In this document: in pieces, positions 25,451-63,772 of the stretch
How the letters are laid out: the number at the start of each line of letters is the position of its first letter
Position numbering within the stretch: position 1 is the stretch's first letter
Assembly (NCBI GenBank): GCA_050084515.1
Contig: CM114271.1
Span: forward strand, 23,622,001-23,686,000
Length of the DNA: 64,000 nucleotides
Source: Blasia pusilla
Taxonomy: Eukaryota
Direction of reading: 5' to 3'
Notes under the pieces: model-generated
What the model was told of the DNA's origin: nothing
The model's database searches: none
The model's input: only the letters and a program-made list of their open reading frames with translations
Position numbers and translations under genes: made by a program

Positions 25451-25820
25451 TTAGCTCATTACCCGTTCGATTCACATGTGTAGTGATCGAGCAATTGCCA
25501 TGAGAGATGGCGACCTTAGCAGCATTTAGCATTGCCATCACTTGGCTTAGTGATTTGATTGAGGGACATGTCCATGCAGAGGATACTCCCATTTGTGACA
25601 TTTGTATGGAGAGGAGAGTTATGGTAGTCGCATCATTCCGTGGAGGAGAGGTGCCGCTGTGGGGCTCGATTGAGGAGCTTCGACGATTGGCAGATGAGTT
25701 CGTGCAAACCGCGTGGAGCGAGGCGTTTGCACCGGAGCATGATGGGTCTGAGGAACCCAAGGTAGCAGGGAGTGCTACGATGATAGTCTTGGATACCACA
25801 CCCATTGTGTGGATATTTGA

Positions 25821-26760: not shown

Positions 26761-27115
26761 GATCTTCAGCTTCGGAGTGGCTGACCAGCGTCAGATGAGA
26801 TCGCGACAGATCACAGCGGTTGCGTTGGTGAGCCCCATGCCTACCGAGACAGTGGAGGCAGTGGCTGGGGGCGAGACCCGAGGAGATCGACACACCAAGG
26901 GAGATCGAGAGAGACACCCTTGGACTTCTTGGGATGTTTTGCAGGTAGGCCAGGAGATAATAGCCACAGCATCAAGCGTGGTTCCGAGCAATGCATGTGG
27001 AGGAGATCAGAGTTTGTTGTTGGCCGCAGGAGAGCGTTCGAGTATTGTCGTTCGAGACGGGGTTGCACCATAGCAACCACCGATATCCGCGCCGGAGAGT
27101 CCTACTGTAGTCACG

Positions 27116-28571
27116 ATGGAGACTTGGGAGCCAGATATGGGCCCTAAGTTGACAGGAGGAGAGCGGCGCCAAATACATCAGTTCCTCAGGAGTTATAGGA
27201 GCTGCTTTGCGTTTAGCATGGAGGATCTAGGTACGCTGAAGGGACGGGGGATCCGCATTGAGTTGTCGAGTGATACGTCGATCTTCCGATGGCCCTACTG
27301 GTACAGTGATATGAAGAGGGCTTTGATTCAGAGCAAGAGCCAGGACTTGGTTGGAGCATGATTAGTGGAGATGTCGCATGGGGAGTATGGATCTGCCACT
27401 GTCATGCCCGCCAAGAAGGATGTGCATGGCAACAGGACGGATGGGCGGATGTGGGGGGATTACCGACCTATCAATTGGCATACAAAGTCCGATAGGTATG
27501 CCATGCCCACCCGTGAGGAGATCTTTGATGCGATTGGTCATGCAAAGGATTTGATTCATTGATTTATGAAGTCGGATACCATCACCGCCTATCGATTGGT
27601 GGGACAGTGAAGACGGCATTTTGGGGCATCGATCCTTACGGGAAGGATTGTTTGTACTAGTGGCGGTTCTTACCATTTGGGTTGAAAACGCCCCGGCTGA
27701 GTTTCAGAGGGTCATGGATAGGATCTTGGCTGGTCTGGATTTTGCTAGGTCTTATATTGATGACATCGTAGTCTTTAGCGCCATGGTTGAGGAGCATGAG
27801 CGACATCTAGAGGAGGTGTTTTGACAATTGCAATTACATGGGCTGAAGCTACATCCAGGCAAGTGCAAGTTCTTCTACGACCAGATTGAGTATTTGGGTC
27901 ATACGATATATCCTGGGGGCCTTGGTGTTCAGCAGACAAAGGTAGAGGCTATCTCACGCATTCCACACCCTACAGATGTGAGCCGTATTCACGAATTCAT
28001 GGGATTGGCGAACTTCTATCGGCGGTACATCAAGGGATTCAGTTCGATTGCGAAGTCGCTGACCTTGCTGACCAAGGTGGATCACGAGTGGCACTGGGAG
28101 GGATGAGGAGGAGCGATCATTTCAGTTGCTCAAGGATAGGTTGACGTCCTCGCCCATCTTGAGGAGACCGATCAGGGGGCGTTCTTAACATTGCACACAG
28201 ATTGGAGCATGTTGGGGCTTGGAGCAGTGCTCACCCAACATGATGATGAGGATAGAGAGTTCGTGGTGGCTTACGGTAGCCGCTTGAACAACGTTGCAGA
28301 GGCAAAGTTCAACTCGTATGAGGGTGAGTGCTTGGCTGCAGTGTGGGCTATCGCGCATTTTAGGTGTTACTTCTTCGGAAACCCCTTTACAATCATCACT
28401 AATCATCAACCACTGAAGATGTTGATGGAGTCTGACAAGCTTACAGGAAGCTTGCGAGATGGGCAATGTTGTTGCAAGAGTATGATTTGCAGGTGGTACC
28501 CTCAACCAGGATGCAGATGGGTTGAGTCGTAACCCATGCCCGAGTCAGCGAGATGCGATTGGAGCTCGATG
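27116..28571 (+). pseudogene. pol: Reverse transcriptase and RNase H of copy 1 (degenerate)
   Basis: RT motifs DYRPIN...DRYAMP and YIDD (27753-27764), plus LKLHPGKCKF and YLGH. RNase H motifs HTDWSMLGLGAVLTQ, SYEGECLAAVWAI and TNHQPLK. Confidence 0.92.
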
Positions 28572-29573
28572 TGTCGCGCCCCTACTCTCCTTGAACGTCA
28601 ATCTTTAGTGTTGCGGAAGCGTACGTTCAGTAGGTCATGAACTCATCGCTGATCTGCACCCAAACACGCACTCTCGTTAGTCGGGTCTTGGCCAACCAGC
28701 GTTCCAACCCACCGAGTCCTCAACTCGGCGTCTCATCAAGCTCAACCTTCCTTAGTTCCTAGTTTCCAAAACATGGCAAGTCCTTCAAGACTTGGAACAG
28801 ACTTCCTGGTTAGTTCAGGGATTTGAAACGGCACTTGCGCGCCTAGGGATCCCAACTGTTCAACGGTCCTTGGGTGAGTTCCGAACCGAGACCCAAGTAA
28901 TTGAGTCGCGGGGTGGAATCCAAGAGGGATGTCTAAAATTGCCTCAATGGACTTGGTGCAGGTTTTCCAACCCAACCCCCAAACTCGCGTTCCGTTCCAT
29001 GCCCTTGAGCCGCCCCGTGGTGCCCAAAGTGGGGTTTGGGTTCCAAGCACTCTCGGAGACCTTCCCCTTTACTAGTACTTCTGGGGTTCTCCAATAGCCC
29101 CTCCCCTTTGGGAAAAGAGGGTCGGGCCCTTCATTGTGGCCTTCAACCCGACTCCACTTACAGTCGTTTTCGGGTTGTATCTCGGCCGCTGCTTATGCGT
29201 TTGCAGCGATCTTTGGTGCGTTTGGACCGGCTCTTCCTAAGCTTTCCAACTCACTCTTATTTGTTCCAAAGAATCTTGGCGCTAAAAGTTATGGCCATAA
29301 ATACAGTCAGAAACTCTCAAACGCTAGTGGCGTTCCAAATCCGGATCTTTCCTTTGGCAACCCACTTCCTAGACTCGACTTCTTTCAAGTCTCATTCCGC
29401 GTTTGGTCCAGTTTTCTCAATCGCGACCATAGCATCTAAAACGCGACTCCTCGCTCGCGTCTCGTCTCTTGTCTCCTCTTTGAGACAACTCCAACGCGCA
29501 AACCATCTTAGCGTGAGCCCGCTAATGTTCCGATGTTCCGCTTGGCACTTGTTTGGTCATGAGGGTCGCAACA
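28572..29573. mobile_element. Solo LTR (1002 bp) of an unrelated conventional LTR retrotransposon nested in copy 1
   Basis: TGTCGCG...CGCAACA termini and a perfect 5-bp TSD CGATG (28567-28571 / 29574-29578). Copy 2 has the empty site gagctcgatggcatgg (~61206). Confidence 0.92.
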
Positions 29574-29899
29574 CGATGGCATGGAGAGAGTGATGAGGAG
29601 TCAGTGCTAGGATGGCTCGCGTCAGCCTATTTAGGCATGTTAGCTATGGAGAGCGAGAGTGTGGAGACTTCGATGGCGAGGTCTAGTGGAGAGTCCTTGG
29701 ATCCTGAGGCCAGTGAGGAGACGATAGATGGCCGAGATATTCATGATGATGGAGTAGTCTTGGAGTACCTTCGGACTAGTAGCGTTGCGAGCACCGTGGG
29801 TGCTAGAGAGCGGGATCGGATCCTACAACGGGCCAAACGGTTTCGTTGGGAGGGGACACATGTTTTGAGGGTTTGGGAGGATGGAAGAGTACGCGTGGT

Positions 29900-31171
29900 G
29901 CCGCATCCTTTGCAGAGAGCACGACTAGTGCAGCATGCCCACGAGGAGTTGGGTCACGGGATGAAGCGGACGTACAACTTGCTCCAGATTCACTATTGGT
30001 GGCGAGGCATGCAGACTGACGTTCAACAGTTTGTTGCCAGATGTATGGTGTGTGATCGGGTCCGAGCATCAATGCTCTGACTCCACATTTGCATCCATTA
30101 CCGATCATGGGCTTAGGGTATAGATGGAGTTTGGATTTTGCAGGACCTTTGCCTTTGACGAAGCGTCACAGTTGTTATGTGTTGGTGATGGTCGATCACT
30201 TCTCGAAGTGGATCGAGTTGGCTGCATTGCCTGACAAAGCGAGTGAGGGAGTAGCTTATGCCTTCCTTAACAGAGTATTGAGTCATTATGGCGCACCGGC
30301 TGAGGTGTTGACAGACCAATATACTGAGTTTCGCAGTGAGTTCCAGCCCTTGTGTGATTAGGCGCTGATCGACCATCGCACGACTTCGCGAGATCATCTT
30401 GAGGCGGATGGATTAGCGGAGAGAGTTGTGTACACGGTGAAGAGGGGTTTACGCAAGTATGGCTTGCAGAGAGGTCACATAGGAGATTGGGACCTCCAAT
30501 TGCCCTGGTTGGCGATGGGATACAGATTTAGCAGGCAGGCATCCTTAGCGTCTTTTTCACCATACTTGCTACTTTATGGCCGAGAGCCAGATTTGCCTGC
30601 GGCCATTCGTCGAGATGCTGGTGAGGTGTTGGATCTTGATGACCCATATATATGGATGCGAGCATGTTCTTAGAGGGATGAGTTGTTTCGGAGAGTGATG
30701 CCCATGGCGTTCGAGAACTTCGCGATTGCACAACATCGGGATACGTTGAGGTATGCGACTATTCGGGGTGGTGGTTATCGGCCAACTATCCGGAGGTTTC
30801 ATCAAGGAGACTTTGTATACTTGCAGCAGACGCCACCGACGACATTGGATGTGACTGTAGGGCGCACTAACCTGAGAGTGCGTGACGTTTTGCCATCCGG
30901 TGTTCTCTTGTGGGAGGGACGCGATGGTATGGTATGGAAGGACCATGTGCGTAATTGTGCGCCATTTCACCTTCCTAACATTGATGGTACAGTAGATCCG
31001 AGCTGAGCAGTAGTTCCTGCAGGCTTGCGTTGTATATTGTATGGTTCTGCCCATGGTGCGGCCACGATGCTAGTCTGTGATGGATGTTCAAGAGGTTGGC
31101 ATATGGCATGTCTGACGCCACTTCTCACTAGGATTCCTTGGGGACGATGGATGTGTCCCAGATGTACATAG
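29900..31171 (+). pseudogene. DDE integrase with C-terminal PHD finger, copy 1 (degenerate)
   Basis: HHCC (HEELGH...CMVC), WSLDFAGPLP, VLTDQ, GLAERVV. PHD-like CILY...CDGCSRGWHMACL...WMCPRC at 31031-31165, stop TAG 31169-31171. Confidence 0.9.
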
Positions 31172-34100
31172 AGGAGATACTAGGTAGGTTTGATTTCGAA
31201 CTGAAAAATTCGATTTCGAATTTTTCTGTGACATGGATGACAAGAAGGCGACAAATGATGGGGCCACATGAGCACCCGGCCTTCTTGCTCTTAGCGTCCG
31301 AGAGATGTATGTCATGGTAGGTAGAGATAGATGGCTATCTGGAGTTAGAGGGACCTAACCACCAGCTAAGGGGCGATTGGAGATATTTTAGTACTTCTTG
31401 TCTTGTTGTTTGGATGCCATGAGTTAGCATGGGATCGTGCGTGTTTGTGTGTGTGTTCGGTGACAGCGATGTATGTTCCATAGTGATGTGTGTGCGCACG
31501 ATAACTGTAATGTCTTTTAGGATAGATCGGTGAGATCTAGTAGAGCGCCTTCGTTAGTAGTGGAGGACACGCTCAGTAGGTCGAGGATGACATGTTGAGG
31601 CCCCATGAAACCTGAGAGAGCAGGTTTCCCCTTCGTTTCGGCTCATTTGGAGCCATATTGAAGAACTTGCTATTTTAGGTAAGTACCATTTTGAGTATAT
31701 GATCAACTTTATATTTTTGGTAAGTGGCCCTTGTCCTCCTACATCTGGTCAAGAGCCAAGGAGGTGACTTGGGAGAATAGGTTACCATGGAGAGAGCTTG
31801 GGAGAGGGGAGGGGTGAACCTCAAGGAGAGAGAGCTTGAGAGCTCATTCTCTCTTTGTTGAACCTCTTGGCATGAGGCGGCGGAGCTATGGTCCCTTGCC
31901 TTGTAAGTGTAATCCAAGCCTCTCATTAGGAGAGTGGGTTTGGTTTGACATGAGAGAGAGTGCACACCTTTGAGAGCTGTGGTGTGAGATGGTATAAAGA
32001 GAGATTGGATCTTACTTTAATTGGAGATATTTTAGTACTTCTTGTCTCGTTGTTTGGATGCCATGAGTTAGCATGAGATTGTGCGTGTTTGTGTGTGTGT
32101 TCGGTGACAACGATGTATATTGTATAGCGATGTGTATGCGCACAACAGGCTTGTTAAGACTTGAAGGCATGCCATAGGTGCGATCGGGGCTTGGCAAGTT
32201 GAGGGTGAGCCTCATGCAAGCTTGCAGGCCTGGCAGGCGGGCCATTTGGGCTTAGTGTGAGCCAATAAGGCAAGTGGTGTGCGGACCATGCGGATTTCTT
32301 GTAGGCCTAGGTTCTGAGCATGTGGGTTGTGCGGACTAAGGCTTGGGACAAGGTTTAAGATGTTGGATTCTGAACATCCACTTCTCTGAGCACCATTAAT
32401 TTAATCGGCCCCCTTGAATGAGGAAAAGCCTAGTTTGATGGTTCCGACTTAGACGTCGAAGGAGTCATAGTAGTATGACGTAGGTGGTTTGTGGAGTAGC
32501 GTTACTAGGATTATCCAACCCTATATTGCATCAGGGTCCGGGGCACCCTGATGCGTCGCAGGGGTCCAAAGGTGCAGCCCTTGGTATGCCAAGACGACGC
32601 GGGGGTCCGAAGAAAATTAGGTTAAAAACCTAGTTTCCTAAGTAGTGACATAGTGGGGAGCGGCATCGGTAGCGCGTTCTCATATGTCAAGTTATCTCCA
32701 TATTCAGGTTCCATCGAAGCTCTTCTGTGAGCGCACAGACGGACCAGGCCACTTTGTATCTCTATGTTTTGTAAAGATTTCAGTGATTTCGTCACTTTTG
32801 TTTTCTCACATGAGGGTGTGGGTTGAAGCAAGCTCCGCGAGGCTGCGTCCGAACTTAAGCGCGGTTCATGTGTGGGTAGGGGAAGATTTTGAAGGTTATT
32901 GAAGGCACTTGAGGGGATGGAGAAGAAAGTAGAAGATTAAAATATAATTGCAAATGAATGTGGTTAAAGAAGTGGGAATAGTAGTGATCGAGAGAGGTAG
33001 GATGCATGTTAAAATAGAATTGAATTAGGTGGTTGTATTAGAAAATAGATTAGTTGCAAACAAAAGTGGATAAAGAAGTTAGGATAGTTGAATAAGGATT
33101 GGGTTTAGGAGAAAAAAAAAAGATTTGCTAAATGATAATTACTATGAATGGTTTATATGATAATTTAAAATAAAAAGTGGGAGGCATTTGGAGATCTTCT
33201 TAGTGAAAAAGTAAAGAAAATTTTTGAGCAAAGTAGTTTTGAAAAAGGATAAATTGAGAACGTCTACCTTGTTTCCGAGGACTCTAGTACATCACAAGCT
33301 CAGAATTAATAGTAAGTGGGGGTAAATCAGGTAAAAGAGTGAAGGGTTCATTCTCTTCCATCCACACTCCCCAATATAAAATTATTTATTTTGGGTATAT
33401 CCTCACAATCTCATTCCTCCCTTCATATCTTTCTATCTCTACTCTTTTATGGAAAAAACATATCTCCATAGATAGGTGAACTTGATAAGTGAGACTATAT
33501 TTTGCCACTAGATAATCATGATAGTTTAAGGTATTTTGGTTATCTAGGTTAGCATATTGATCATTCTTGTTCATAGTGATGGTTCCACAATTGCTTGTGG
33601 AGCATTCACAGACAATATTTGGTGTAAGTTATTTATATTTCACCGGTCGATATATCCTATTATAGACATTATGTACGCTTGATCTTCTGTAAATCACTTT
33701 AACTCGCCCCTCTATTCTTAAAGGGTATGGTTTGGTCACATCCAATTTTCAAGATGCCCACCATTCTAGAATGGATAGATGACGTATAGTGGATGCTCGA
33801 TCAACCTTCCCACTATGGGAGCCATCCCTTGATATAAAATTGTTGCAAACATCTCCTCACACATTATTGATTATCTTGAATAAAACCGAGATGCTTCCTT
33901 AAACACCTTCATGCAATAGTAAATATCCTCACTAAATCCAAGGATTTGATTTATTTTACAACAATATATGGTTCCGTGTAAACCTGAGTCGTCAATATCC
34001 TCAAAATAATGTCCTACTACTACATCCTTGTAAGAAATCCACTTACATCCATGAGAAACCACCAATTTCTTCCCTACATGAGTATTAAGTCCCTTAAAAA

Positions 34101-34329: not shown

Positions 34330-37300
34330 TGTCATGCGCATACACATCGCTACACAACATACATTGCTGTCATCGAACACACCCACAAACACTCACGATC
34401 CCATGCTAACTCATGGCATCCATACACAAAGGCGAGAAGTACCAAAATATCTCCAATCTGATAATTGATAACCTCCTGGTGCAGCACCATCTCCTCCTCC
34501 ATGCTGAGGCACACGTCCATGACCTTGACAAGTGCAATCGCGCTGATGATAGGCTCCACCACATGACCAACAAGTAATAGTAGGAGGCTGCTGTTGAGCC
34601 GCATATGAAGATGCAGGGTCTCTATGGCACGGCCTCCTAGTATCCTCCCTGAGCTCGTGGTGCCACAGTCGATCTATCTCGGAGTCCACGTTGTTGCACA
34701 TGTGGTGCAGCCAATCATGACTGCTCTCGCCTAGAACCCATTGTGGCTACGCTCTCCTCTGCCATGTTGCACTCAATGTTCTCGGCGGTCCTAGAAGCAT
34801 CTCTCAACATAGGGAAGGTGTTCATAAGAAGTACCCCCTCCCCCACCTGTGTTCGAAGGGTCTGGTCCAACATTGCGTACCATGATTGGATAGCCTGAGC
34901 CTGTGTCACCCCCTGAGTGACGTTGATCAACCGGCGCAAGCGAGTGTAAGCCTCACGCAAACTCTCACTTGGGCGCCTCTGTAAGTCATGGATGCTCCGC
35001 AACTTCTCCGTCCGTACCCCTTGGTAGCTCACCCTCAACTCAGCAAAGAATTCAACCACAGGGTTGAACCTGTGACGACCCCGCCTAGACGTTGCAACTG
35101 CTCTAGTGCGAGTGACCCCTCCTAAAATGTCACTTGTGGAAGAGGAAGTAGCCTCTTTTGACTCCTCCTCCTCATGTGGGAGTGGCTCCGTCCATGACAT
35201 ATAATGTGGGTCATAGTAGAGCCTCAACGCCTAGATCTCACATGCATATCTCTGAGAGAATTCATGGTCATCGTCCATGGGCGCCCCCTCTAAGAAATTG
35301 TGCAACTTAATCGTGCCTATTGCACCAGAAAACCTACGCGGTCCTCTACCTCGGTCGTCCATCTCGTATACCCAACTGGTAGGACCACTCACAATGTGTG
35401 GCGATGTGCTCACAAATTCCTCTACATCCTCCCCCTCGTCTAACGATGACATAGAAGGAGGTCGAGGTGGTCCCTCACATGGAGACCCTTGAAAACTCGT
35501 GCCACTCCGTGTAAAACCTGTAGAGCTACTCTTGGGTTGACCACCTCGCCTCTCAAAGTCTCGAATGGACGCCGTGATGACCCTCGTGCCCCTCTCACCC
35601 GATCACTCTCAACCTTGCAAGTAATCCCTCAATCACTCATCCGAAATATGCAGCACTCGATCTACACTCTCCCTCCTCGAGACGTGTAACGTGCGGCAAC
35701 ACGCGGCGTGGTGTGGAAAATTGACCAGGCTATCATCTCATTGACAACCTACCCTCAACTCTGGATATCCCACACAAATCTATGTCCCCTAAACCACATA
35801 CATGAAGGATGCTCTCAGCATCCACATAACCCAATATCCCCAAATAAACTTTCTAAATCCCAGAATCCCTCACACGTGCAGGGTAAAGGACCAGAATGGG
35901 TAACCTGAACACATGTCGATGTCGCTCCTCAGCAACTTCAAATCTCAACCCCAACTTGGTTGTGAAGACAACTCCTCCAATCAGCAAGTCGTACTCCTCT
36001 CGTTCTGACGCTACTCAACCTCCTCGATGTGCGGTGCAGGTTGAGCGGTCTGGTGCAGCACTGGCGGCATGAGACGGCTACAAAAAGCACGGCACTCGGT
36101 GGCATAGCCTCCTCAATCAGCAATTCACACGCTCTGCTCCTTAGTGAAGGAGCGGTTCCTCGATCGAGACGGTGCGGTGTGGCACGAGCGGCACGACGCA
36201 ACAATCGGCCGCGCGTTGCAGCTACACGCGTCACGACACGATACTCGATCGTTGTCGAGCAGCTACCAATCACAACATAACAACATGAAATCAAAACTCA
36301 AACACCATAACCGGAGGTCATCTGCCATCACTGGTTGATGACAAAATTGCGATGAAAGTGACGGCCAAAACAAAGTAAGTGGTGGCAACATCATGGAAGA
36401 CCCTCCACTCCATAATGGCGGCAATGGCAACCAAAGGGTGGACAACGGACGGTGGACCGTTGATGGTGACGATTGACCGTTGATGGTGACGGTGACGGTT
36501 GACCATTGACGATGACGGTTGACTATTGACGATGATGGTTGAATGTTGATGGTGAACCGTTGATAGTGACTATGATGGCGACGGCCGCCGGCGACGTGGC
36601 GGCTGGTTTAGGGTTTGAACAATTTAACCCTAAAGATCACCTCGCAATGGCAGTTTTGCAAGATTGACCATAACGTTTTTCTCGCAACTCTAAATTGTGC
36701 ACTGTTTATTGCACAGCGTGCACAACTGCATGATCTACGACAACATCAAAAAATATTTAGAATTGGACATTCCAATAAAAACTGACAGGGATTGTTGGAA
36801 AGCCCAATGTCTCTTTCTCCTACACAAAATTTGGCAGCGCTTCCGCGCTGATTTCTCCCAACGAAAATGTAAAATACAAATCAGCAAGTTACATGGTGCT
36901 CCCAAAAGCGCCAGAATGGGGCAACCTGCCCCCATAATCAATTCCTATCAGAAATTGGGTAGTTCTTCCGCGCGCCAGTCTTCCACACAAAAAATCGGCA
37001 AATGCAAGGAAGAATCAAAGCAGCCCTTGCTCCGATGAGCAGTCCCATGAGCCGCTGAACGGGGAACACGGTCCTCAACCTGCAAAAATAGCGAGTGACC
37101 AATGAGCTCCGCCATGAAGCTCTCTCACTCTCTCATTCTCTCATTCTCTCATTCTCTCTTTCTCTCATTCTCTCTTTGTAAAGTAAGATCCAATCTCTCT
37201 CTACACCATCTCACACCATAGCTCTCAAAGGTGTGCATTCTCTCTCATATCAAACCAAACCCACTCTCCTAATGAGAGGCTTGGGTTACACTCACAAGGC

Positions 37301-37691
37301 AAGGGACCATAGCTCTACTGCCTTATGCCAAGAGGTTCAACAAAGAGAGAATGAGCTCTCAAGCTCTCTCTCTTGGAGGTATACCCCCTTCCCTCTCCCA
37401 AGCCCTCTCAACGGTAACCTATACTCACAGGTCATCTCCTTGGCTCTTGACCTGCTGTAGCGGGTCAAGATTCACTTCCCAAAGTGGAAAGTCAACTATC
37501 CCTAATATGGAAACTTACCCGAAATAATAAGTTTCTCTATATGGCTCCAAATGAGACGAAACGAAGGTGAAACCGGCTCTCTTAGGTTCCCCAAGGCCTC
37601 AACAGGTCATCCTCAACCTTGTGGGCATGTCCTCCACTACTCGTGTAGACGCTCTACTTGATCCCACCGATGTATCCTAACAGTCGTGACA
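34330..37691 (-). mobile_element. Internally deleted copy 3 of the same retrotransposon (A - leader - partial gag - B)
   Basis: The minus strand starts TGTCACG at 37691 and ends GACA at 34330, with TSD GCCT (34326-34329 / 37692-37695). A 37179-37691, B 34330-34458. Gag ORFs 35231..35452, 34715..35227 and 34411..34701. Confidence 0.92.
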
Positions 37692-38749: not shown

Positions 38750-39634
38750 AAGCTTACTAAAACGTGTTATGATGATTTATATATAATAATTGGCGGCCCC
38801 ATATGCATAATATGACAAGATAGTGAGATAATAGGACAAAATAGACAACACGTTTGAATTTGTTGTATGAGCCATGTGAAATGGGTAGAAATAGATAGGG
38901 ATAGAGGAAAACGGATAGGGATTTGAGTCAAATAGAGTTTTTTAATTAATAAAAATTAATTTTTTGAATATTGTAATGGATGATTATAAATATGAATAAA
39001 TTAGAATAATTATGATAAATAAATTTTTTCCTTAATTAAGAGTTTTTGGAAAGGGAAAATAAGTTTTAATGGAGAAGGAGTAGATTTTGTTTAAATTTTC
39101 TAGAAGGGTAAAATTACTTAGGGGATTGGGATATCATTTAAATTTGAATGGAGGAGTGTCATTATTTAGAAGAGTCAAAGGTTATTACTCTTGTAAGATT
39201 TTAGAAGAAAGAATTATATTTAAAATCTTGAAGAAATCATTTGATTATTTTTAAAAATAATGGTATTAATTCACAAGTGATATTTTGGGAAAGGAAAATG
39301 AATTTGAATGGAAAAGGAAAATGATTTCGTTTATTAAAATTAACCAATAATTTAGTTAGTGAATGTTATTTTGGTGGGAAGAGTGGAAGGCGAAGAATAG
39401 TTATTGTTTGAACTTTTACGCAGGAGTGAAATCATTTAGGGGAGATGGGTATTATTTGAAGGTGAAATTTTCTTATTTTTTTAAGATTTTTAAAAGTGGA
39501 AATTAGACTTAAAAATTTAAATTAAGTTTCAAATTCTCTGTATAATTAAAAAAAACTATGATTGAAACCTATTTTTTAAGGCCCTTCTATCGAGGAAGCT
39601 ATGTTATGCGTGCATTGCACGAGCGACATACTAG
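38750..39634 (+). mobile_element. Non-autonomous Helitron-like element (AT-rich body with a canonical 3' end)
   Basis: Hairpin CGTGCATTGCACG (39609-39621), then 9 nt, then CTAG|T (39631-39635). The body is homologous to the AT-rich repeats at 9-10.3 kb and ~20.3 kb. The 5' end was not found. Confidence 0.65.
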
Positions 39635-39641
39635 TGTATAT

Positions 39642-40205
39642 TGTTATACAATATACAATACACACCGTCTTTGCTAATCAAATAAACTAGAAAGTCGTGT
39701 AATACATTCAACCATGGAGTCAAAATGAAGAAGCAAGTAGAATCTATTGAAATATCTCCAAAATATCAAAAGAGGACCTTTCCTTACACAAAAACAAAGC
39801 TCCATCTCTCTCTCTCTCTCTCTCTCTCACATTCATTATGAGAGGATGGGGTTATTGACAAGGAGGATCATAGTTTTACTACCTCATGCAAAGAAGGTTC
39901 CACAAAGAGAGAATAAGCTCCCAAACTCTCTTTTCTCGAGATGTACCTACTCGCTCCCCAAACCCTCTCCCTTGTGACCAATGTGCATAGGTGATCTTCT
40001 CGACCCAAAACCTTAAATAGTTGATCAAGGATTCTTTCCACTAATAGATAGATGATTATCTAAAAGTAATTATTTCCTTAAATAAATTCCAAAAGGGCCT
40101 AAACCAAACTTACAAGATACTCTACTCCTCAAAATGTTCTCCTTACATATTTGGCTCTTCCATCGATCTCCCCCATAATGCCACACGGATAATCTTCTTT
40201 TTGCA
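39642..40205 (-). mobile_element. Highly diverged A+B terminal-repeat remnant of a related element
   Basis: aatatctccaa at 39751-39761 is the reverse complement of the B start, and B-like sequence lies to its left. 39836-39970 resembles A (atgagagg..gggtta, catagt, aaggttc.acaaagagagaat.agctc). Ends approximate. Confidence 0.55.
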
Positions 40206-53299: not shown

Positions 53300-53496
53300 G
53301 TCTTAATAAAGTCCGTGTCCGCAGACTTATGCTTGTCCCTAAGACGGACATGTCCATGCGGGCTTGGATACCCAGGTACCCACGCCCACACCTAAGTCTG
53401 CCTCCGGAGTCCACCAAGCCCGTAGCGGGCATCCGGGCAGGTCGAGCCCGCATTGGTTTTGTGGCCCGCGGGGTGGGCTCAGGCTCGCCCAGCGGG
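53300..53496. repeat. Left arm of a GC-rich foldback/MITE-like host repeat interrupted by copy 2
   Basis: gagcccgcattggttttgtggcc (53444-53466) is an imperfect inverted repeat of gaccacaaaaccattgtgggctc (63816-63838), on the far side of the insertion. Confidence 0.55.
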
Positions 53497-53805
53497 TGTC
53501 ACGTCTTTTAGGATAGATCGGTGGGATCTAATAGAGCGCCTTCATGAGTAGTGGAGGACACGCCCAGTAGGTTGAGGGTGACCTGCTGAGGCCCTTGGAA
53601 ACTTGAGATAGCAGGTTTCCCCTTCGTTTCGGCTCATTTGGAGCCATATTGAGGAACTTACTATTTTAGGTAAGTACCATTTTTAGTATATGATCGACTT
53701 ACTATTTTTGGTAAGTGACCCTTGACCTCCTACATCAGGTCAAGAGCCAAGGAGGTGACTTGGGAGAATAGGTTACCATGGAGAGAGCTTGGGAGAGGAG
53801 AGGGG

Positions 53806-53849
53806 TATACCTCAAGGAGAGAGAGCTTGAGAGCTCATTCTCTCTTTGT
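53806..53849 (+). promoter_or_regulatory. Putative Pol II core promoter in repeat A (TATA-like element plus initiator-like TCATT)
   Basis: TATAC (TATAAC in A2) at 53806, and CTCATTC about 30 nt downstream (53834). The same segment is complementary to the PBS-position sequence. Confidence 0.45.
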
Positions 53850-54009
53850 TGAACCTCTTGGCATGAGGCGGCGGAACTATGGTACCTTGCCTTGTGAGTG
53901 TAACCCAAGCCTCTCATTAGGAGAGTGGGTTTGGTTTGACATGAGAGAGAGTGCACACCTTTGAGAGCTATGGTGTGAGATGGTGGAGAGAGAGATTGGA
54001 TCTTACTTT

Positions 54010-54025
54010 ACAAAGAGAGAATGAG
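54010..54025 (+). promoter_or_regulatory. Putative self-priming primer-binding site
   Basis: ACAAAGAGAGAATGAG begins at the last base of A1 and is the exact reverse complement of 53834-53849. There is no tRNA-type TGG PBS. The same sequence occurs in copy 1 (21323-21338) and copy 3 (37164-37179). Confidence 0.6.
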
Positions 54026-57000
54026 AGAATGAGAGAGTGAGAGAGCTTCATGGGGAGAGCTGGTCACTCGCTGTTTTTGTAGGTTGGGGACCGTGTTCCC
54101 CGTTCAGCGGCTCATGGGAGTGCTCACCGGAGCAAGGGCTGCTTTCATTACTCTTTGCATTTGCCGATTTTTCGTGTGGAAAAGTGGCGCGCGGAAGCGC
54201 TGCCCAATTTCTGATAGGGATTGAGTATGGGGGCGGGTTGCCCCATGCTGGTGCTCTCGGGAGCACCATGTAGCTTGCTGATTTGTATTTTTACAGATGT
54301 TACATTTTCGTTGGGAGAAATCAGCGCGGGAGCGCTGCCGAATTTTGTCTAGGAGAAAGAGACATTGGGATTTACGACAGTCCCCGTCAGTTTTTACTGA
54401 AATGTCCGATTCTAAATATTTTTTGATGGTAGCGTAAATCGTGAAGCTGTGCACACTGTGCAACAAACAGTGCACAATTTGGAGTTGCAAGCAAAAAGTT
54501 ATGGGCAATCTTGTAAAGCTGCCATTGCTAGGCGATTTTTAGGGTTAAATCGTGCAAACCCTAAATCAGCCGCCCCACCGGCGGCGGCCGTCGCCATCAT
54601 AGTCACCGTCAACGGTCGATGGTCAACCGTCACCATCATCGGTCGGTCGTCACCATCAGCGGTCAACCGTCACTGTCAAGGGTCCACCGTCCATTGTCCA
54701 CCCTTTGGGTGCCATTGCCGCCATTACGGAGTGGAGGGTCTTCCATGACGTTCGTTGATTCCTTGACTTGCGTCGCCACCACGTACTTTGTTTTGGACGC
54801 CACCGTCATCGCAGTTTCTTCATCAACCAGTGAAGGCAGATGACCTCCGGTTATGGTGTTTGAGTTTTGATTTCATGCTGCTATGTTGTGATTGGTAGCC
54901 GCTCGACGACGATCGAGTATCGTCGCGGACGCCCGTGAGCCGCAACGCCGCCGATTGCCGCGCCATGCCGCTCGGGGCGCACCGCACCATCTCGATCACG
55001 AGCCGCACCGTCATTGTGGAGCAGAGTGTGGGATTATTATTGATTGAGGAGGGTATGCCGCCGAGTGCCGCATCCCACCATCGGGGCGTGCCGTTCGAGC
55101 CGTTCGTGCCGCTGCAACGCCGCACCGTTCGTTGGGACCGCATCGTCTATCGAGGAGTTTTGAGCAAAGATCGATGACGGGAGGAGTATGACTTGTTGAT
55201 TGGAGGAGTTGTCTCCACGATCGAGTTGGGGTCGAGATTTGCGATTCTTTGAGGAGCGACATCGACATGTGTTCAAGTTAGGTTACCCATTCTGGTCCTT
55301 TACCCCGCACGTGTGAGGGATTTAGGATTTATTTGGGGATATTGGGTATGTGGATCGAGAGCATCATTTATGTATGTGGTTTAGGGACATAGACCTGTGT
55401 GGGATGTCCGGAGTTGAGGGTAGGTTGTCGATGAGATGATAGCCTGGTCGATTTGCCGCACCACGCCGCGTGTTGCCCGACGTTACGTCTCGGAGAGAGA
55501 GAGTGTAGATCGAGTGCCGCATGTTTGGGATGAGTGATTGAGGGATTCCTCACGAGGTTCAGAGTGATCGGGTGAGAGGGGCACGAGGGTCATCACGGAG
55601 TCTGTTCGGGACTTTGAGAGGTGAGGTGGTGAACCCGAGAGTAGCTCTAGAGGTTTTCGCGGAGTGGCGCGAGGTTTCGAGGGTCTCCACGTGAGGGACC
55701 ACCTCGACCTCCTTCGTGTCATCGTCAGACGAGGGGGAGGGTGTAGAGGAGTTTGTGAGCACATCGCCACACATTGTGAGTGGTCCTACCAGTTGGGCGT
55801 ATGAGATGGACAACCGGGGTAGAGGACGCGTAGGTTTTCAGTGCGATGAGGGGCGATTGAGTTGCACGATTTTATAGCAGAGTTTAGGAGTTGATGCGAC
55901 TCCCGGGCCAGGAACTCTAGAGAGTTCAACCCGTTCTGACATGGAACGGTATGTTCCAGCATTTAGAGGGGGCGCCCATGGGCGATTACCATGAGTTCTC
56001 GAGAGATATGCATGTGAGATCGGCGTGGAGGCTCTACTATGACCCACATTATGTGTCATGGACGGAGCCGTTCCCAGATGAGGAGGAGGAGTCGAGGAGA
56101 GGCTCCGCCTCTTCCACTAGTGACGTTTTAGGAGGGGTCACTCGCACAGAGCGATTGCATTGCCGTCTAGTCGGGTTCGTCCCGAGTTCAACCCGTGGTT
56201 GAGTTCTTTTTGAGTTGAGGGCGAGCTACCGGGGGCGGACGGAGAAGTTGCGGAGCATCCACGACTTCAAAGGCGCTCGGGTGAGAGTTTGCGTGAGGCT
56301 TACACTCGCTTGCGCGGTTGATCAACGTCACTCGGTGGGGTGACAGAGGCTCGAGCTATCCGGTCATGGTATGCGATCTTGGACCGGACCTGCGGACACG
56401 GAGTGCGGGAGGGGTGCTTCTTATGAACACCTCCCCTACGTTGAAGATGTTTTAGGACCGCCGAGAACATTGAGCGCAACATGGCGGAGGAGAGCGTAGC
56501 CACCATGGGTTGGGCGAGAAGCGATCCACGATTATGCACCACGTGTGCGGCAGAACGTGGACTCGAGATAGGTCGATCGTGGCACCACGAGCTCGGGGAG
56601 GATACCGAGAGGCCGTGCCCACGAGACTGCGCCTTCATATGCGGCTCAGCAGCCGCCTACTATTACTTGTTGGTCATGTGGTGGAGCCCATCATCAGCCG
56701 CGATTGCACTCGTCGGGGTCATGGGCGTGTGCCTCAAAGATGGAGGAGGAGATGGTCTTTGCACCAGGAGGTTATCAATGTGACTATTGTCGAGGTATGG
56801 TCATACACGCGCCATGTGTTTTAGTTTACATCTGAGTTACGCCTGGACCGAGGGCCAGAAAGGGCACCAGAGCGAGTAGCCGGTCCGGGTGGGCCTAGAG
56901 ATCGTGCTCGGTGGTCCCGTTGGGGACGAGGAGGGAGTTGCCCGAGAGGGTGGTGGAGCTGCCCGTGGAGGAGGTAGAGTACCACCATCTAGACGCGCCG

Positions 57001-58490
57001 AGGAGATGCCGGACGTGAGGTCGGGATGGTTGCTCGATACAACGACTACAGGAGAGAGATTGCCGCTATGGCATTGAGGTTACCCGATGCGGATCCGTGG
57101 CATCGACATCATATGGAGCAGCCAGAGATCTGGAGGATCCTAGATGGATGTGCGGGGTTGCCCAGATGGAGGCCGCCGCAGTTGTGATGCGTGGAGCGCC
57201 GCAGAGTTGGATCCACGGCCAGGGGAAGCCAAGAGATGGCAGACTAGGCTTCCTCAATCTTTCACGTTGTCGAAGCGATGAGGACCCCATCGATGGGTCC
57301 TCATCAAAGTTCCGGAGAGTTGGTAATGTTGTTGGTGTGCAAGCACGAGGGCGATGGGAGAAGCGAGTGCGGCGACTCCTATTGTTGATGCTCGGGAGGG
57401 GCATGTGTCGAGCACGTTGTTGGGGCGGCCACCGTTGTGTACCGCACTCCTTTATTTTTGCTTCCGATGTTGTGGCGTTGGGAGGTACGCCCGCCGAGGC
57501 TTTTTTGGCTGGCCGCTTCACTATGTGAGCGCGAGTTGGAGTTCTGCATCACGTTAGAGGTGATTGAGGAGGTGATGGACCTGCCCTTGAGCGGATGCTC
57601 GGGCCGCCCACGTCGATTCATGGCGGTGCGGTCGCTAGGATGGCGGAGATGCCCGCTAGACCCGCGATAGAGCGTGCCATGGCTTCTCCTGGTGTTGTGT
57701 TCTTTGGATAACCGAGGAGAGGTCTTCCAATTGGTGAGTCTTGGAGGTAGAGCTTTTAGTCCGTGGCAGCGTCTTGTTGATTCAGAGCGCAACCCTTGAT
57801 GTTGGGGAAAGTGTCATTAGAGGATTGGGCTTGACGAGAGCCGATGTGGAGTGTTGTCCATTTCGGATACTGAGACATCCTTGGGTGGAGCGAGTACCAC
57901 CACAATATATCACCCGACAGAGGTCGTGGTGAGGATTCGCCGGGACATCCTGAGATGAGTCCGTGGTGCGCGCCAAGGCGATAGTGATCGATCTTTGAGT
58001 CCTCGACGTCTTGGTTGGTGGAGGAGTGTTATACCCGATGGGGTTTTCCCTGGATTCTTGGGAGGAGTCGCATCTCTGAGACCAGGATGGCAATCAGGTG
58101 ATGGGCGCCTTAGCTCATTACCCGTTCGATTCACAGGTGCGATGATCGAGCAACGGCCAGAGAGATGGCGACCTTAGCAGATTTAGCAGTGCCATCACTT
58201 GGCCTAGTGATTTGATTGAGGGACATGTCCATGCAGAGGATACTCCCGTTCCTGACATTTCTATGGAGAGGAGTGTTATGGTAGCCGCATCATTCCGTGG
58301 AGGAGAGGTGCTGTGTGGGGGCTCGGACCGAGGAGCTTCAACGATTGGCGGTGCGCACGCGCGCATCAGCGTGGAGCGAGGCGTTTGCACGAGGCGTGGC
58401 GGGTGTGAGGAACCCGAGGTAGCGGGAGTGCTACGATGACACCCTTGGATACTACACCCATTGTGTGGTGTACCGGAGGAGGGTATTCGA

Positions 58491-59420
58491 GTGTTAGATC
58501 TCTTTGGAGGGATTAGCACCGGGTTAGGCTCTTTGTTTTGAGGCAGGAGTCGAGTCTGATAGTACTTGTATGTGGAGAGTGATGATGTTGCGGCGCGTCT
58601 CACTCGACATGTGGTGCAATTACGCCCACGTTTTCCCGACTTATTGTCTGCGCCGCGTCTGGGTACCGAGTTCCCCTACCGAGGGATATTTTGTTGTTGG
58701 GGGCGCAGGACTTAGAGCGGGTAGGGACCATTGATTTGGTCATTGCCGGTTGGCCATGTCAGGGCCAATCGAGTCTTTGGGACGAGGCGCGGGTTGGTGA
58801 CACTCGGTCCAGTTGTTTTGGGAGATGTTGAGGGTCTTACGGCGATTCTGCAGGAGAGCACCGATCTCGTTCTCCAGCCTACATTCTGGAGAAAGTGCCG
58901 ATCTCAGGAGACTCCAGGTCACGGGTCGTGATGAGTGCTCATCAGGTGCGTGCCTGGATCGGCCCAGCAGTGTTCTTGGATGCGGCGAGTGTAGGTTCTA
59001 GAGCCCATTGCCCGCATCTATGGTGGACCAACTTGGTGCCCCATGCGGTGTTATGGAGGGCGTATGCGAGAGTGGAGCGCCCCTCCCCTTTGTTAGTGGA
59101 TTCCATTCTGGATCCAGGTCGTCGATCACACGCAGTGAGGCACGATGATCGACCACCGCTGACTGTGGTCAACAGGGTAGGCAGGCCGCGGGCAGCCTTG
59201 CCCACGTTTGTGAGTTTTCCCGCTTCCTATGCATACAAGGAGGCCGGTCCTGGCTTGGTTTGGGATGACCAGGTTCAGCGGTTGGTGGAGCCCAACGCCG
59301 ACGAGAGAGAGCGAGCGATGGGATTTCCCAGAGTGACGGCAGTACCATCGGTGTCAGAGGCATCACGACGCCATGTCTTGGGTCAGGCGATGGACCTGAA
59401 TCGCTTGACATGGATCCTCG
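58491..59420 (+). pseudogene. DNMT3-like C5-cytosine DNA methyltransferase domain inside Pol, copy 2 (frameshifted as assembled)
   Basis: VLDLFGGISTG (58491-58523), IDLVIAGWPCQG (catalytic PC within 58748-58765), YILE.VP, DAASVGSRAH..HLWWTNL and ERERAMGFP...RRHVLGQAMD. Confidence 0.92.
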
Positions 59421-59766
59421 GCCTTGGGAGTGGTCGAGCGGCGTCGTATGAGATCGCGACAGATCACACGGCATTGCGTTAGGAGCCCCATGCCTACCGA
59501 GACGGTGGAAAAGTGGGCTAGGGGCGAGACCCGAGGAGATCTACGCACCGGGGGGAGATCGGGAGAGACACCCTTGGACTTCTTGGGATGTTTTGAAGGT
59601 ACGCAAGGAGATGATAGCCACAACATCGAAGCGTGGTTTCGGCAATCGCACGTGGAGGAGATCGAGTTTGCGATTGGTGTAGGAGAGCGGCCGAGTGTTG
59701 TTGTTCGAGACGGGTTGCACCATAGCAACCACCGATACCCGCGCCGGAGAGTCCTACCGTAGTCAC

Positions 59767-62700
59767 GATGGAGACTTGGGAGCCAGATATGGGCCCTAAG
59801 TTGACAGGAGGAGAGCGGCGCCGAATACATCGTTCCTCGGGAGTTATAGGAGCGCTGCGTTTAGCATGGAGGATTTGGGTACGCTGAAGGGACCGGGATC
59901 CGCATTGAGTTGTCGAGTGATATGCCGATCTTCCGGCGACCCTACACAGTCTGATGATATGGAGAGGGCTCGATTGAGTAGGAGCAAGACTTGGTCGGAG
60001 CGGGACTAGTGGAGATGTCGCATGGGGAGTATGCATACCGCCCTTTGTCATGCCCGCCAAGAAGGATGTGCATGGCAACCGGGCGGATAGGCGGATGTGT
60101 GGGGATTACCGACCTATCAATCGCGACGAAGTCCGATAGGTATGCCATGCCCACCCCGAGAGATCTTTGATGCGATTGGTCACGCAAAGGTCTTGATTCA
60201 TTGATTTTGAGTGGATACCATCACCGCCTATCGATTGGAGGACAGAGGAAGACGGCATTTTGGGGCATCGATCCTCACGGGAAGGATTGTTTGTACCAGT
60301 GGCGGTTCTTACCATTTGGGTTAAAGAACGCCCGGCTGAGTTTGAGAGGGTCATGGATAGGATCTTGGCTGGTCCGGATTTTGCTAGGTGTTATATTGAT
60401 GACATTGTAGTCTTTAGCGCCACGGTTGAGGAGCATGAGCAACATCTAGAGGAGGTGTTTCGGCGATTGCAATTACATGGGCTGAAGCTACATCCAGGCA
60501 AGTGCAAGTTCTTCTATGACCAGATTGAGTACTTGGGTCATACGATATACCCGGGGCCTTGGTGTTCAGCAGAGGCGAAGGTAGAGGCTATCTCACGCAT
60601 TCCACGCCCTACTGAGATGTGAGCCGTGATCGGCGCATTCATGGGATTGACGAACTTCTATTGGCGTACGTCAAGGGATTGATTTGATTGCGGGGGCCGA
60701 CCTTGCTCACCAAGGTGGATCACGAGTGGCACCAGGGGATGAGCAGAGCGAGCATTTCGATTGCTCAGGGCAAAGTTGGCGTCCGCACCCATCTTGAGGA
60801 GACCGATCGGGCGTCCTTTCGATTGCACCTGATTGGAGCATGTTGGGGCTTGGAGCGGTGCTCACCCAAAGATGATGATGAGGGTAGAGAGTTCGTGGTA
60901 GCTTACGCTAGCCGCTCGAACAACGCTGCAGAGGTGAAGCACACTCGTATGAGGGTGAGTGCTTGGTGCGATGTGGGGTGTCGCGCATTTCAGGTGTTAC
61001 TTATTCGGCAACCCCTTTACCATCATCATCGATCATCAACCACCTGAAGTGGTTGATGGAGTCCGACAAGCTTTGAGGAAGCTTGCGAGATGGGCTCTGT
61101 TGTTGCAGGAGTATGATTTTCAGGTGGTACATAGACCTGGAACGCTCAACCAGGATGCAGATGGGTTGAGTCGTAACCCATGCCCGAGTCAGCGAGATGC
61201 GATTGGAGCTCGATGGCATGGAGAGAGTGATGAGGAGTCGGTGCCAGGATGGCACGCGTCAGCCTATTTAGGCATGTTGGCTATGGAGAGCCAAAGTGTG
61301 GAGACTTCAATGGCGAGGTCTAGTGGAGAGTCTTTGGATCCCGAGGCCAGTGAGGACACAACAAGTGGCCGAGATATTCATGATGATGGAGTAGTCTTAG
61401 AGTACCTTCGTACTGGCAGCCTTGCGAGCACCATGAATGCTAGAGAGCGGGATCGGATCCTACAGCGGGCCAGACGGTTCCGTTGGGAGGGGACACATGT
61501 TTTGAGGGTTTGGGAGGATGGTAGAGTACGCGTAGTGCCGCATCCTTTGCAGAGAGCACGACTAGTGCAAACCATGCCCACGAGGAGTTGGGTCACTTTG
61601 GGGTGAAGCGGACGTATAGCTTGCTCCAGATTCGATATTGGTGGCGAGGCATGCAGGCGATCGACGTTCAGCAGATTTGTTGCCAGGTGCATGGTGTGTG
61701 ATCGGGTCCGAGCATCGTTCAATGCTCCGACTCCACGATTGCATCCATTACCGATCATGGGCTTAGGGTATAGATGGAGTTTGGATTTTGCGGGACCTTT
61801 GCCCTTGACGGAGCGCCACGGTCGTTATGTGTTGGTGATGGTGAGCACTTTCGAAGTGGATCGAGTTGGTTGCATTGCCTGAAAAAGCAAGTGAGGGAGT
61901 AGCTTATGCCTTCCTTGACGGTGTCTTTGAGTCATTATGGCGCACCGGTGAGGTGTTGATGACCAGGTACCGAGTTTAGCGGTGAGTTCCAGGCCTTGTG
62001 TGATCAAGCGATCGACCACCGCGACGACGACCGCGAGATCATCCCGAGGCGGATGGATTAGCGGAGAGAGTTGTGCAGACGGTGAAGAGGGGTTTACGCA
62101 AGTATGGCTTGCAGAGAGGTCACCTAGGAGATTGGGACCTCCAGTTGCCATGGTTGGCGATGGAATACAAATTCAGCAGGCAGGCATCCTTATCGTCTTT
62201 TTCACCGTACTTGCTACTTTATGGCCGAGAGCCAGATTTACCTGCGGCCATTCGTCGAGATGCTGGTGAGGTGCTGAACCTTGATGACCCAGATGTATGG
62301 GTGCGAGCATGTTCTCAGAGGGCTGAGTTATTTCGGAGAGTGATTCCCATGGCGTTCGAGAACTTGGCGATTGCACAACATCGGGATACGTTGAGGTATG
62401 CGACTATTCGAGGTGGTGGTTATCGACCAACTATCCGGAGGTTTCATCAGGGAGATTATGTCTATTTGCAGCGACGGCACCGGCGGCGTTGGATGTGATC
62501 GCAGGGCGCACTATCTTGAGAGTGCGTGACATTTTGCCATCGGGTGTTCTCTTGCTGGAGGGACGCGATGGTATGGTATGGAAGGACCATGTGCGTCATT
62601 GTGCGCCATGTCACCTTCCTAACATTGATGGTACAGTAGATCCGAGCTTAGTAGTAGTTCTTGCAGGCTTGCGTTGTATGTTGTGTAGTTCTGCCCGTGA

Positions 62701-62815
62701 TGCGGCCACGATGCTAGTCTGTGATGGGTGTTCGAGAGGATGGCATATGGCATGTTTGACGCCACCTCTCACTAGGGTTCCTCAAGAACGATGGATGTGT
62801 CTTAGATGTAGATAG
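59767..62815 (+). pseudogene. pol: RT - RNase H - DDE integrase - PHD region of copy 2 (many 1-bp indels as assembled)
   Basis: CYIDDIVVFS, VVAYASR, KLARWALLLQEYDF...HRPG..NQDADGLSR, WSLDFAGPLP. Intact PHD at 62675-62809, stop at 62815. Confidence 0.9.
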
Positions 62816-62986
62816 AGAAGTTAGTTCTACATTCCGACTTGTGTCTATGACATGGATGACAAGGAGGCGACTAACGATGGGGCCACATGAGCACCCGGCC
62901 TTCTTGCTCTTAGCGTCCGAGAGATGTATGTCATGGTAGGTAGGGATAGATGGCTATCTGGAGTTAGAGGGACCTAACCACCAGCT

Positions 62987-62993
62987 AGGGGGG
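62987..62993 (+). promoter_or_regulatory. Short polypurine tract just upstream of repeat B1
   Basis: AGGGGGG-C-GATTGG in copy 2 and AAGGGG-C-GATTGG in copy 1 (31368-31373). Absent before B2. Short for a PPT. Confidence 0.5.
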
Positions 62994-63772
62994 CGATTGG
63001 AGATATTTTGGTTCTTCTTGTCTCGTTGTTTGGATGCCATGAGTTAGCATGGGATCATGCGTGTTTGTGAGTGTGTTCGGTGACAGCGATGTATGTTGTG
63101 TAGCGATGTGTATGCACACGACAGCTATCACGTCTTTAAGGATAGATCGGTGGGATCTAATAGAGCGCCTTCATGAGTAGTGGAGGACATGCCCAATAGG
63201 TCGAGGGTGACCTGCTGAGGCCCTTGGAAACCTGAGATAGCAGGTTTCCCCTTCGTTTCGGCTCATTTGGAGCTATATTGAGGAACTTACTATTTTAGGT
63301 AAGTACCATTTTTAGTATATGATCGACTTAATATTTTTGGTAAGTGACCCTTGACCTCCTACATCAGGTCAAGAGCCAAGGAGGTGACTTGGGAGAATAG
63401 GTTACTATGGAGAGAGCTTGGGAGAGGAGAGGGGTATAACTCAAGGAGAGAGAGCTTGAGAGCTCATTCTCTCTTTGTTGAACCTCTTGGCATGAGGGGG
63501 CGGAGCTATGGTACCTTGCCTTGTGAGTGTAATCCAAGCCTCTCATTAGGAGAGTGGGTTTGGTTTGACATGAGAGAGAGTGCACACCTTTGAGAACTAT
63601 GGTGTGAGATGGTGGAGAGAGAGATTGGATCTTACTTTAGATTGGAGATATTTTGGTTCTTCTTGTCTCGTTGTTTGGATGCCATGAGTTAGCATGGGAT
63701 CATGCGTGTTTGTGTGTGTGTTCGGTGACAGCGATGTATGTTGTGTAGCGACGTGTATGCGCACGACACGGG

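Follow-up and report, generated by a model that had tools for sequence, protein, structure and literature searches.

A predicted self-priming signature in a split-repeat Ty3/gypsy retrotransposon family from Blasia pusilla

How does a retrotransposon begin minus-strand DNA synthesis when no tRNA-type primer site follows its 5′ repeat? This question is raised by an element in a 64,000-nt stretch of Blasia pusilla DNA (the whole stretch analysed, hereafter the window), in which a preliminary description had pointed to a motif directly after a long repeat as the exact 16-nt reverse complement of a segment inside that repeat and had proposed priming without a tRNA. The proposal turns on the following features:

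53497–54010, plus strand: repeat A1, 514 nt, starting TGTCACG and 97.5% identical to a second copy, A2; promoter, R and U5 lie inside it.
53806–53809, plus strand: TATA-like motif within GGTATACC, which aligns with the TATAAAG of a related family described below.
53834–53849, plus strand: 5′ segment CTCATTCTCTCTTTGT, proposed self-primer and predicted beginning of the RNA.
54010–54025, plus strand: candidate primer-binding site ACAAAGAGAGAATGAG, the exact complement of 53834–53849, beginning at the last base common to A1 and A2.
54018–54041, plus strand: GAGAATGA units (two in this copy) followed by GAGAGTGA; the number of units differs among copies.

The two 16-mers are complementary at 16 of 16 positions, and the site shares one base with repeat A, which ends at 54010. 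The setting is also as first described: TATA lies 28 nt before 53834, the first TGG after A1 occurs at 54051, 41 nt downstream, and the motif is absent after A2, which continues into a further repeat, B. The site carries no complement to a tRNA 3′ end at its start, and tRNA gene searches returned none within the 64-kb window or across 80 metagenome loci introduced below.

A direct-repeat search, BLAST and alignment identified three copies of one retrotransposon family in the window, all degenerate and with many stops:

20810–32147, plus strand: copy 1, with A1 at 20810–21323, site at 21323–21338, B1 at 31375–31503, A2 at 31506–32019 and B2 to 32147; target-site duplication GGCT.
34330–37691, minus strand: copy 2, a short form in which a single A and a single B enclose a reduced internal part; target-site duplication AGGC.
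53497–63768, plus strand: copy 3, containing the features listed above; target-site duplication CGGG.

The pair recurs in all three copies with a constant segment-to-site spacing of 176 nt. It is an exact 16-nt pair in copy 3 and in copy 2 (37355–37340 with 37179–37164, minus strand), and copy 1 retains 14 contiguous Watson-Crick pairs: as had been reported, its A1 segment (21147–21162) has one mismatch, its site (21323–21338) is exact, and an intact 16-mer is held in its A2 (31843–31858). The A2 of copy 3 likewise holds a second 16-mer (63463–63478), and a search of the window allowing up to two mismatches gave 13 matches against 0.05 expected. The reported variation in the units after the site also stands, with one GAGAATGA unit in copy 1, two in copy 3 and four in copy 2, which has one GAGAAAGA variant besides. 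Segmental duplication was considered as the origin of copies 1 and 3 and rejected because their flanks and target-site duplications differ.

The preliminary description had cautioned that low-complexity, GA-rich sequence might by itself produce such a match. We scored the complementarity of A1 with the 30 nt after A1 against dinucleotide shuffles of either A1 or the downstream 60 nt, and 16 nt was reached by 0 of 5000 trials under either scheme, the longest complements being 12 nt (A shuffled) and 15 nt (downstream shuffled), so that this caveat does not hold as the source of the match. The G/A-rich repeat has just two pyrimidine runs of at least 8 nt, one of which is the C/T-rich 16-mer. The predicted fold of RNA 53834–54045 places the 5′ end on the site, with an energy of −70.4 kcal/mol and a z-score of −3.59, and 0 of 200 shuffles folded as well.

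We examined the identity of the element with Pfam scans that covered 84 plus-strand ORF pieces. These reveal the domain order RVT_1, RT_RNaseH, Integrase_H2C2, rve and a C-terminal PHD finger, which in copy 3 fall within one region:

54042–62986, plus strand: internal region of copy 3, with many stops; RT at 60197–60622, RNase H from 60959, integrase zinc domain at 61525–61698 and PHD finger within 62327–62815.

The PHD finger ends the integrase region in both long copies (within 62327–62815 in copy 3 and at 31007–31168 in copy 1) and in relatives too. Upstream of the RT, copy 1 contains a piece of a C5 DNA methyltransferase (PF00145; 26067–26249, E 2.1e-9); this domain was found in that one ORF piece and in none from copy 3 among the 84 plus-strand pieces, and it is carried by relatives P0022, P0024 and P0030. 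When a 215-aa RNase H/integrase piece was used as query, 31 longer proteins matched, several of them carrying PF00145 and PF00628, and the best named relatives come from liverworts, namely Riccia sorocarpa (62% identity), Calypogeia fissa and Marchantia polymorpha; the ESM Atlas returned generic RNase H/integrase clusters only. By its domains and repeat layout, we class the element as a degenerate Ty3/gypsy member of the streptophyte Gypsy-DNMT3 group. We rejected a tyrosine-recombinase (DIRS/Ngaro) identity, since the element has a DDE integrase and target-site duplications and no tyrosine recombinase occurs among the 84 plus-strand ORF pieces. In the leader and first ORF region, both long copies also contain a tandem array of 20-nt units of the ACCGTCAACGG type (54592–54713 in copy 3 and 21873–21994 in copy 1).

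An alignment of related pol proteins, running from the RT to the PHD finger with a mean column identity of 43%, retrieved 80 metagenome loci, and a nucleotide profile of the TATA-to-site stretch was used to find the ends of the related family. Profile matches at 12 loci (10 distinct) were of 5′ type, with A1 followed by a primer-like site, and matches at 12 loci were of 3′ type, with A2 followed by B. The commonest form in this family is TATAAAG, then AGTTCTTTGAGT, then ACTCAAAGAACT directly after A, an exact 12-nt complement. At locus L045, 31 nt separate the start of the TATAAAG motif from that of the segment, which in turn begins 170 nt upstream of where A ends; the site lies at offset 0, and the 12-nt complement was reached by 7 of 5000 and 3 of 5000 shuffles under the two schemes. 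Only the core TCTTTG/CAAAGA is common to the two families; it is flanked by CTC/GAG and T/A in the window family and by AGT/ACT and AGT/ACT in the related family, and helices formed between the segment of one family and the site of the other reach only 5–9 nt.

This comparison, which covers two families, bears on the compensatory changes that had been named as a check, and the answer is divided. Between families the expectation holds, since four aligned flanking pairs differ on both sides and are still Watson-Crick, with positional homology resting on anchoring at the core. Within the related family it does not: covariation is not significant, the three both-side changes among 11 decayed 5′ ends being reached by 75 of 500 shuffles. 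Across these 11 ends 81.3% of cells pair, compared with 33.9–49.7% when the partner is slid by 1–3 columns, and L020 has two pairs changed on both sides. Single copies are decayed, with strict helices of 5, 5, 10, 12, 7, 10, 13, 11, 5 and 5 nt in the 10 scored, and the 5′ end of L014 is without the segment. A second family with a different pair at the same two places nonetheless supports self-priming of the Tf1 type and offers independent comparative support for it, and together with the position of the site and the TATA spacing it favors the tRNA-independent priming that had been proposed. The A1/A2 repeat pair was not found in the more distant loci L055, L058/L059, L062/L063, L073, L078 and L079. 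The last of these (47% protein identity) has an exact 11-nt inverted pair, ACTTTGTAGTT at 3382–3392 and AACTACAAAGT at 3485–3495, in the expected 5′ region; this pair has a CTTTG/CAAAG core and is not tied to a repeat boundary.

The exact pairing, its place at the end of the repeat, its recurrence among copies and the arrangement in the second family are direct observations, and from them we infer a start site, a cleavage and a priming event as follows. Transcription would start at about 53834–53837, roughly 30 nt after the TATA box, and the first 13–16 bases of the RNA would fold back over the 160-nt R-U5 to pair with the site. The RNase H of the element would nick the RNA where the paired segment ends on its 3′ side, and the freed 3′-OH would start minus-strand DNA from the final base of repeat A, in the manner of Tf1. 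A plus strand that copies the primer would then rewrite the site from the 5′ segment, which would keep both complementary and could let GAGAATGA units slip in number. We put the probability that 54010–54025 is the minus-strand primer-binding site, and that the element primes from the 5′ end of its own RNA without a tRNA, at about 0.75.

The strongest competing explanation, which we consider unlikely, is that the complementarity maintains a conserved long-range RNA helix closing the R-U5 leader, with a role in packaging, dimerisation or translation control, and that some other primer is used. The strong predicted leader fold, which includes the helix, would suit such a function, as would the existence of a competing local hairpin. 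Yet the 3′ arm starts exactly where A ends in both families, a place set by the start of minus-strand DNA, and no other candidate primer site follows A, there being no TGG for 41 nt. Priming by a host tRNA, a tRNA half or another small RNA, with the self-match secondary, is an improbable reading. Half-tRNA primers do occur in plant copia lineages, as described in PMC6317226, but the site here does not begin with TGG, and it differs between the families while remaining complementary to each family's own 5′ segment, a pattern not predicted by a shared host primer.

The competing local hairpin involves one further feature of the promoter region:

53813–53833, plus strand: arm 1, rich in purines and lying between TATA and the predicted start; it can pair with the 16-mer and is a near copy of the primer site.

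The predicted hairpin of arm 1 with the segment (53813–53849) has an energy of −19.1 kcal/mol in the window family and −14.3 kcal/mol in L045 (9797–9838), so that the hairpin is kept as a structure and the sequences differ between the two families. A bacterial promoter and terminator scan, whose model is not relevant to a eukaryote, pointed to small hairpins only. If the element primes itself from the predicted start, RNA begun in the 5′ repeat would lack arm 1 there, and the 3′ repeat copy within the RNA would contain it. In that copy arm 1 may keep the 3′ segment masked; such a masking hairpin, if real, would account for priming by the 5′ segment alone.

We compared these predictions with three RNA-seq runs bearing the same species label, mapped at 85% likeness. 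The family is expressed, and its RNAs cross both internal joints: loose read ends left of 53497 mostly carry terminal B sequence (77+32, 151+63 and 101+33 reads for the three runs), and 19 reads in one run cross from the end of A into B. Most of the coverage of repeat A, as these loose ends show, comes from RNAs that pass from B1 into A2. Over A and the leader, first-mate minus-strand depth is about 10–50 times plus-strand depth in the two most biased runs and less in the third, as expected of sense RNA, provided that the libraries were made in the usual way. Over A the depth is 150–390; it drops in the interval 53922–54009 and stays near 45 along the leader. At 53834 the step in depth is small and uneven (152 to 197, 284 to 303 and 152 to 175 in the three runs) because A2 reads dominate repeat A, and no pile of read starts was listed near this position at a threshold of one fifth of adjacent depth, a level unreachable where A2 reads dominate. 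None of the 40 best-supported among 491 letter differences falls in 53834–53849 or 54010–54025, which says little on rarer variants. A few reads (5, 2 and 5 in the three runs) reach 54045 and continue 169 nt upstream at 53877, as would be expected if some expressed copies carried R-U5 and the site twice in tandem.

Those 5, 2 and 5 RNA reads with a 54045-to-53877 joint could also be cited for a highly improbable reading in which the inverted repeat acts on DNA, as a promoter-near hairpin or in strand transfer, and not as an RNA primer pair. Arm 1, segment and site do form a three-part set, but no known step needs such a DNA structure over 176 nt, and priming explains the position at the U5 boundary more simply. 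Chance complementarity has the least to recommend it and is rejected: the repeat is rich in G and A and has many short GAGAG runs, but the shuffles never reach 16 nt, and in the related family the arrangement persists in sequence that is not GA-rich.

The repeats themselves are split. Beyond A1 and the primer site, copy 3 comprises:

53493–53496, plus strand: left target-site duplication CGGG, repeated after B2 at 63769–63772.
62987–62993, plus strand: AGGGGGG, polypurine-tract-like, ending one base (C62994) before B1; such a run also precedes B1 in the related family.
62995–63123, plus strand: repeat B1, 129 nt, ending CACGACA and 97.7% identical to B2.
63124–63125, plus strand: 2-nt spacer, GC, separating B1 from A2; among the copies this border most often reads GACA-GC-TGTC, a palindrome.
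63126–63639, plus strand: repeat A2, carrying the 16-mer copy.
63640–63768, plus strand: repeat B2, the right element end (ending GACA), joined directly to the end of A2.
63769–63772, plus strand: right target-site duplication CGGG.

Copies 1 and 3 have the order A1 - internal - B1 - A2 - B2, with no B left of A1. The unit from A1 to B2 has TG..CA ends (TGTCACG ... CACGACA) and 4-bp target duplications, which are perfect in seven of the nine elements from window and metagenomes with both ends (CGGG, GGCT and AGGC in the window; L066 CATA; L070 AATC; L014 TCTC; L020 TGTG) and match at three of four positions in L045 and L047. The related family has the same layout, with A1, B1, A2 and B2 in L066/L068, L070 and L014 and the 3′ parts of the split layout in L008, L018/L061, L025, L041 and L076, the last of which (37% protein identity) shows B-A-B after a G-run. 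Leaving out L019 and L054, in which B is partial, B1-A2-B2 occurs in seven distinct metagenome loci, and B1 is followed directly by flank, giving an A-int-B arrangement like copy 2, in 13 distinct loci (L009, L013, L015, L020, L024, L026, L032, L038, L045, L047, L048, L065 and L071). Ten distinct 5′ A1 ends adjoin unrelated flanks, and B precedes none of the ten.

These positions bear on what the long terminal repeat of the element is. The AGGGGGG run adjoins B1, not A2, and with this tract before B and the primer site after A, the repeat defined by reverse transcription would be B+A and the integrated copy would be permuted. The two borders of reverse transcription, after the G-run and before the primer site, adjoin each other at A2/B2, and the integrated ends lie at the B/A border. 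In its layout the integrated copy resembles the ordinary two-LTR product, (B+A)-internal-(B+A), after circular permutation. A is not the whole replicative LTR, and the primer-site reading is unaffected by this correction to B+A. Primer site, G-run and A/B joint together would fix the start and end of reverse transcription, with the integrated ends elsewhere.

The A/B joint varies exactly at the join, reading CTTTA-GA-TTGG in copy 3, CTTTA-A-TTGG in copy 1 and CTTTA-TTGG in most RNA reads, and a G is added at one locus of the related family. In L014 (10837–10857) and L044 (2669–2689) the joint holds a 19-nt filler in which 11 nt of U5 sequence are repeated; this filler resembles the irregular joints of ligated DNA ends. 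The short form, with a single A and a single B, is flanked by target-site duplications where both ends are seen and is no rarer than the long form (13 distinct metagenome loci against seven); it may derive from B1 × B2 recombination or arise as a direct product.

For the permutation we favor, tentatively and as a possible but doubtful account, a model in which self-primed reverse transcription makes a product with LTRs of B+A, and the integrase cuts at the internal palindrome GACA-GC-TGTC instead of at the DNA ends, so that permuted copies follow. The A/B joint would be made anew by end joining in each cycle, and short A-int-B copies would be by-products. A symmetric alternative, in which a two-LTR circle is cut at either palindrome, predicts A-B-A-int-B copies; none occurs among the 10 distinct related-family 5′ ends, the three window copies and the seven distinct B2 ends, an absence that could reflect faster loss by recombination. 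Joined-end and circular integration intermediates are debated for retroviruses, and if the permutation reading is true, the family described here would be a retroelement with a DDE integrase that integrates through such an intermediate.

A diverged A-B unit (about 75% identity) without an internal part lies at 39607–40191 on the minus strand of the window; it contains the 16-mer with one mismatch (39902–39917) and a B-like start, TTGGAGATATTT, its flanking 4-mers are unmatched (AGAT and TAGC), and its form is like that of a solo unit from a related family. For sequencing run X1, summed word depth in the DNA contigs over most of A (53614–54009) is about 20–60 times that of the leader (54054–54650), at 0.35–1.0 million compared with 12–69 thousand across most of the leader, which suggests that the host contains very many solo or partial A units.

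Self-priming is established in Tf1 of Schizosaccharomyces pombe, where the 5′ end of the RNA pairs with the primer-binding site through an 11-nt helix, and to our knowledge experimental proof is confined to Tf1 and its close relatives. The element described here resembles Tf1 and sushi elements in that the candidate primer site adjoins the 5′ repeat, is complementary to the element's own (here predicted) RNA start and lacks a tRNA-type TGG, and in that an R-U5 leader loops out between the two arms. It differs from Tf1 in the length of the helix, 16 nt here and 12 nt in the related family compared with 11 nt, and from both in an integrase that ends in a PHD finger and not a chromodomain, in its 4-bp target-site duplications and in its split A-int-B-A-B repeats.

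Among plant elements, self-priming is the dominant prediction for two lineages in the survey of Neumann et al. (2019, PMC6317226), which also cites the Tf1 mechanism: it was predicted for 83% of 1500 Tcn1 elements, chromoviruses of mosses and club-mosses, and for 89% of 203 TAR Ty1/copia elements. Like these, the window element is a plant LTR element in which the site after the 5′ LTR matches its own RNA. Tcn1 as described there has a chromodomain and 5-bp target-site duplications, whereas the lineage here has PHD and DNMT domains, 4-bp duplications and split repeats. The text and supplements consulted for PMC6317226 name neither Marchantia nor another liverwort, and the lineage described here does not figure among those it names. 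Plant self-priming has so far been a sequence-based prediction for these two lineages, and the Gypsy-DNMT3 signature would make a third, one that differs from those surveyed in its domains (PHD, DNMT) and in the length of its target-site duplications. In the literature we found nothing specific on self-priming in the Gypsy-DNMT3 lineage or on PHD-bearing integrases, and this appears to be a known priming mechanism in a lineage where it is apparently unreported.

The closest described counterpart of the whole element is KnitGypsy-Dnmt3 of Klebsormidium nitens, an element with Gypsy order and a C5 DNA methyltransferase in pol (de Mendoza et al. 2018, PMC5890265), whose repeats are described as DIRS-like, A-coding-B-A-B (Fig. 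4c legend and section 9 of that paper). The group is named again as 'streptophytes (Gypsy-DNMT3)' in bioRxiv 10.64898/2026.05.21.726589, and the portions consulted of PMC5890265 and of the bioRxiv paper mention no primer site, target duplication or repeat mechanism. Gypsy domain order, a DNMT in pol and A-coding-B-A-B repeats are shared with the window family; this likeness to the Klebsormidium element is by description only, and the closest named proteins are from liverworts. The same repeat order, A1-B1-A2-B2, is described for the split direct repeats of the tyrosine-recombinase retrotransposons PAT, Ngaro and VIPER (PMC4157794). Those elements encode a tyrosine recombinase, whereas the family here has a DDE integrase (rve, Integrase_H2C2), TG..CA ends and 4-bp target-site duplications. 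With the borders of both the repeats and the predicted priming step placed on the sequence, the unexplained 2018 note of DIRS-like repeats on a Gypsy element becomes directly testable.
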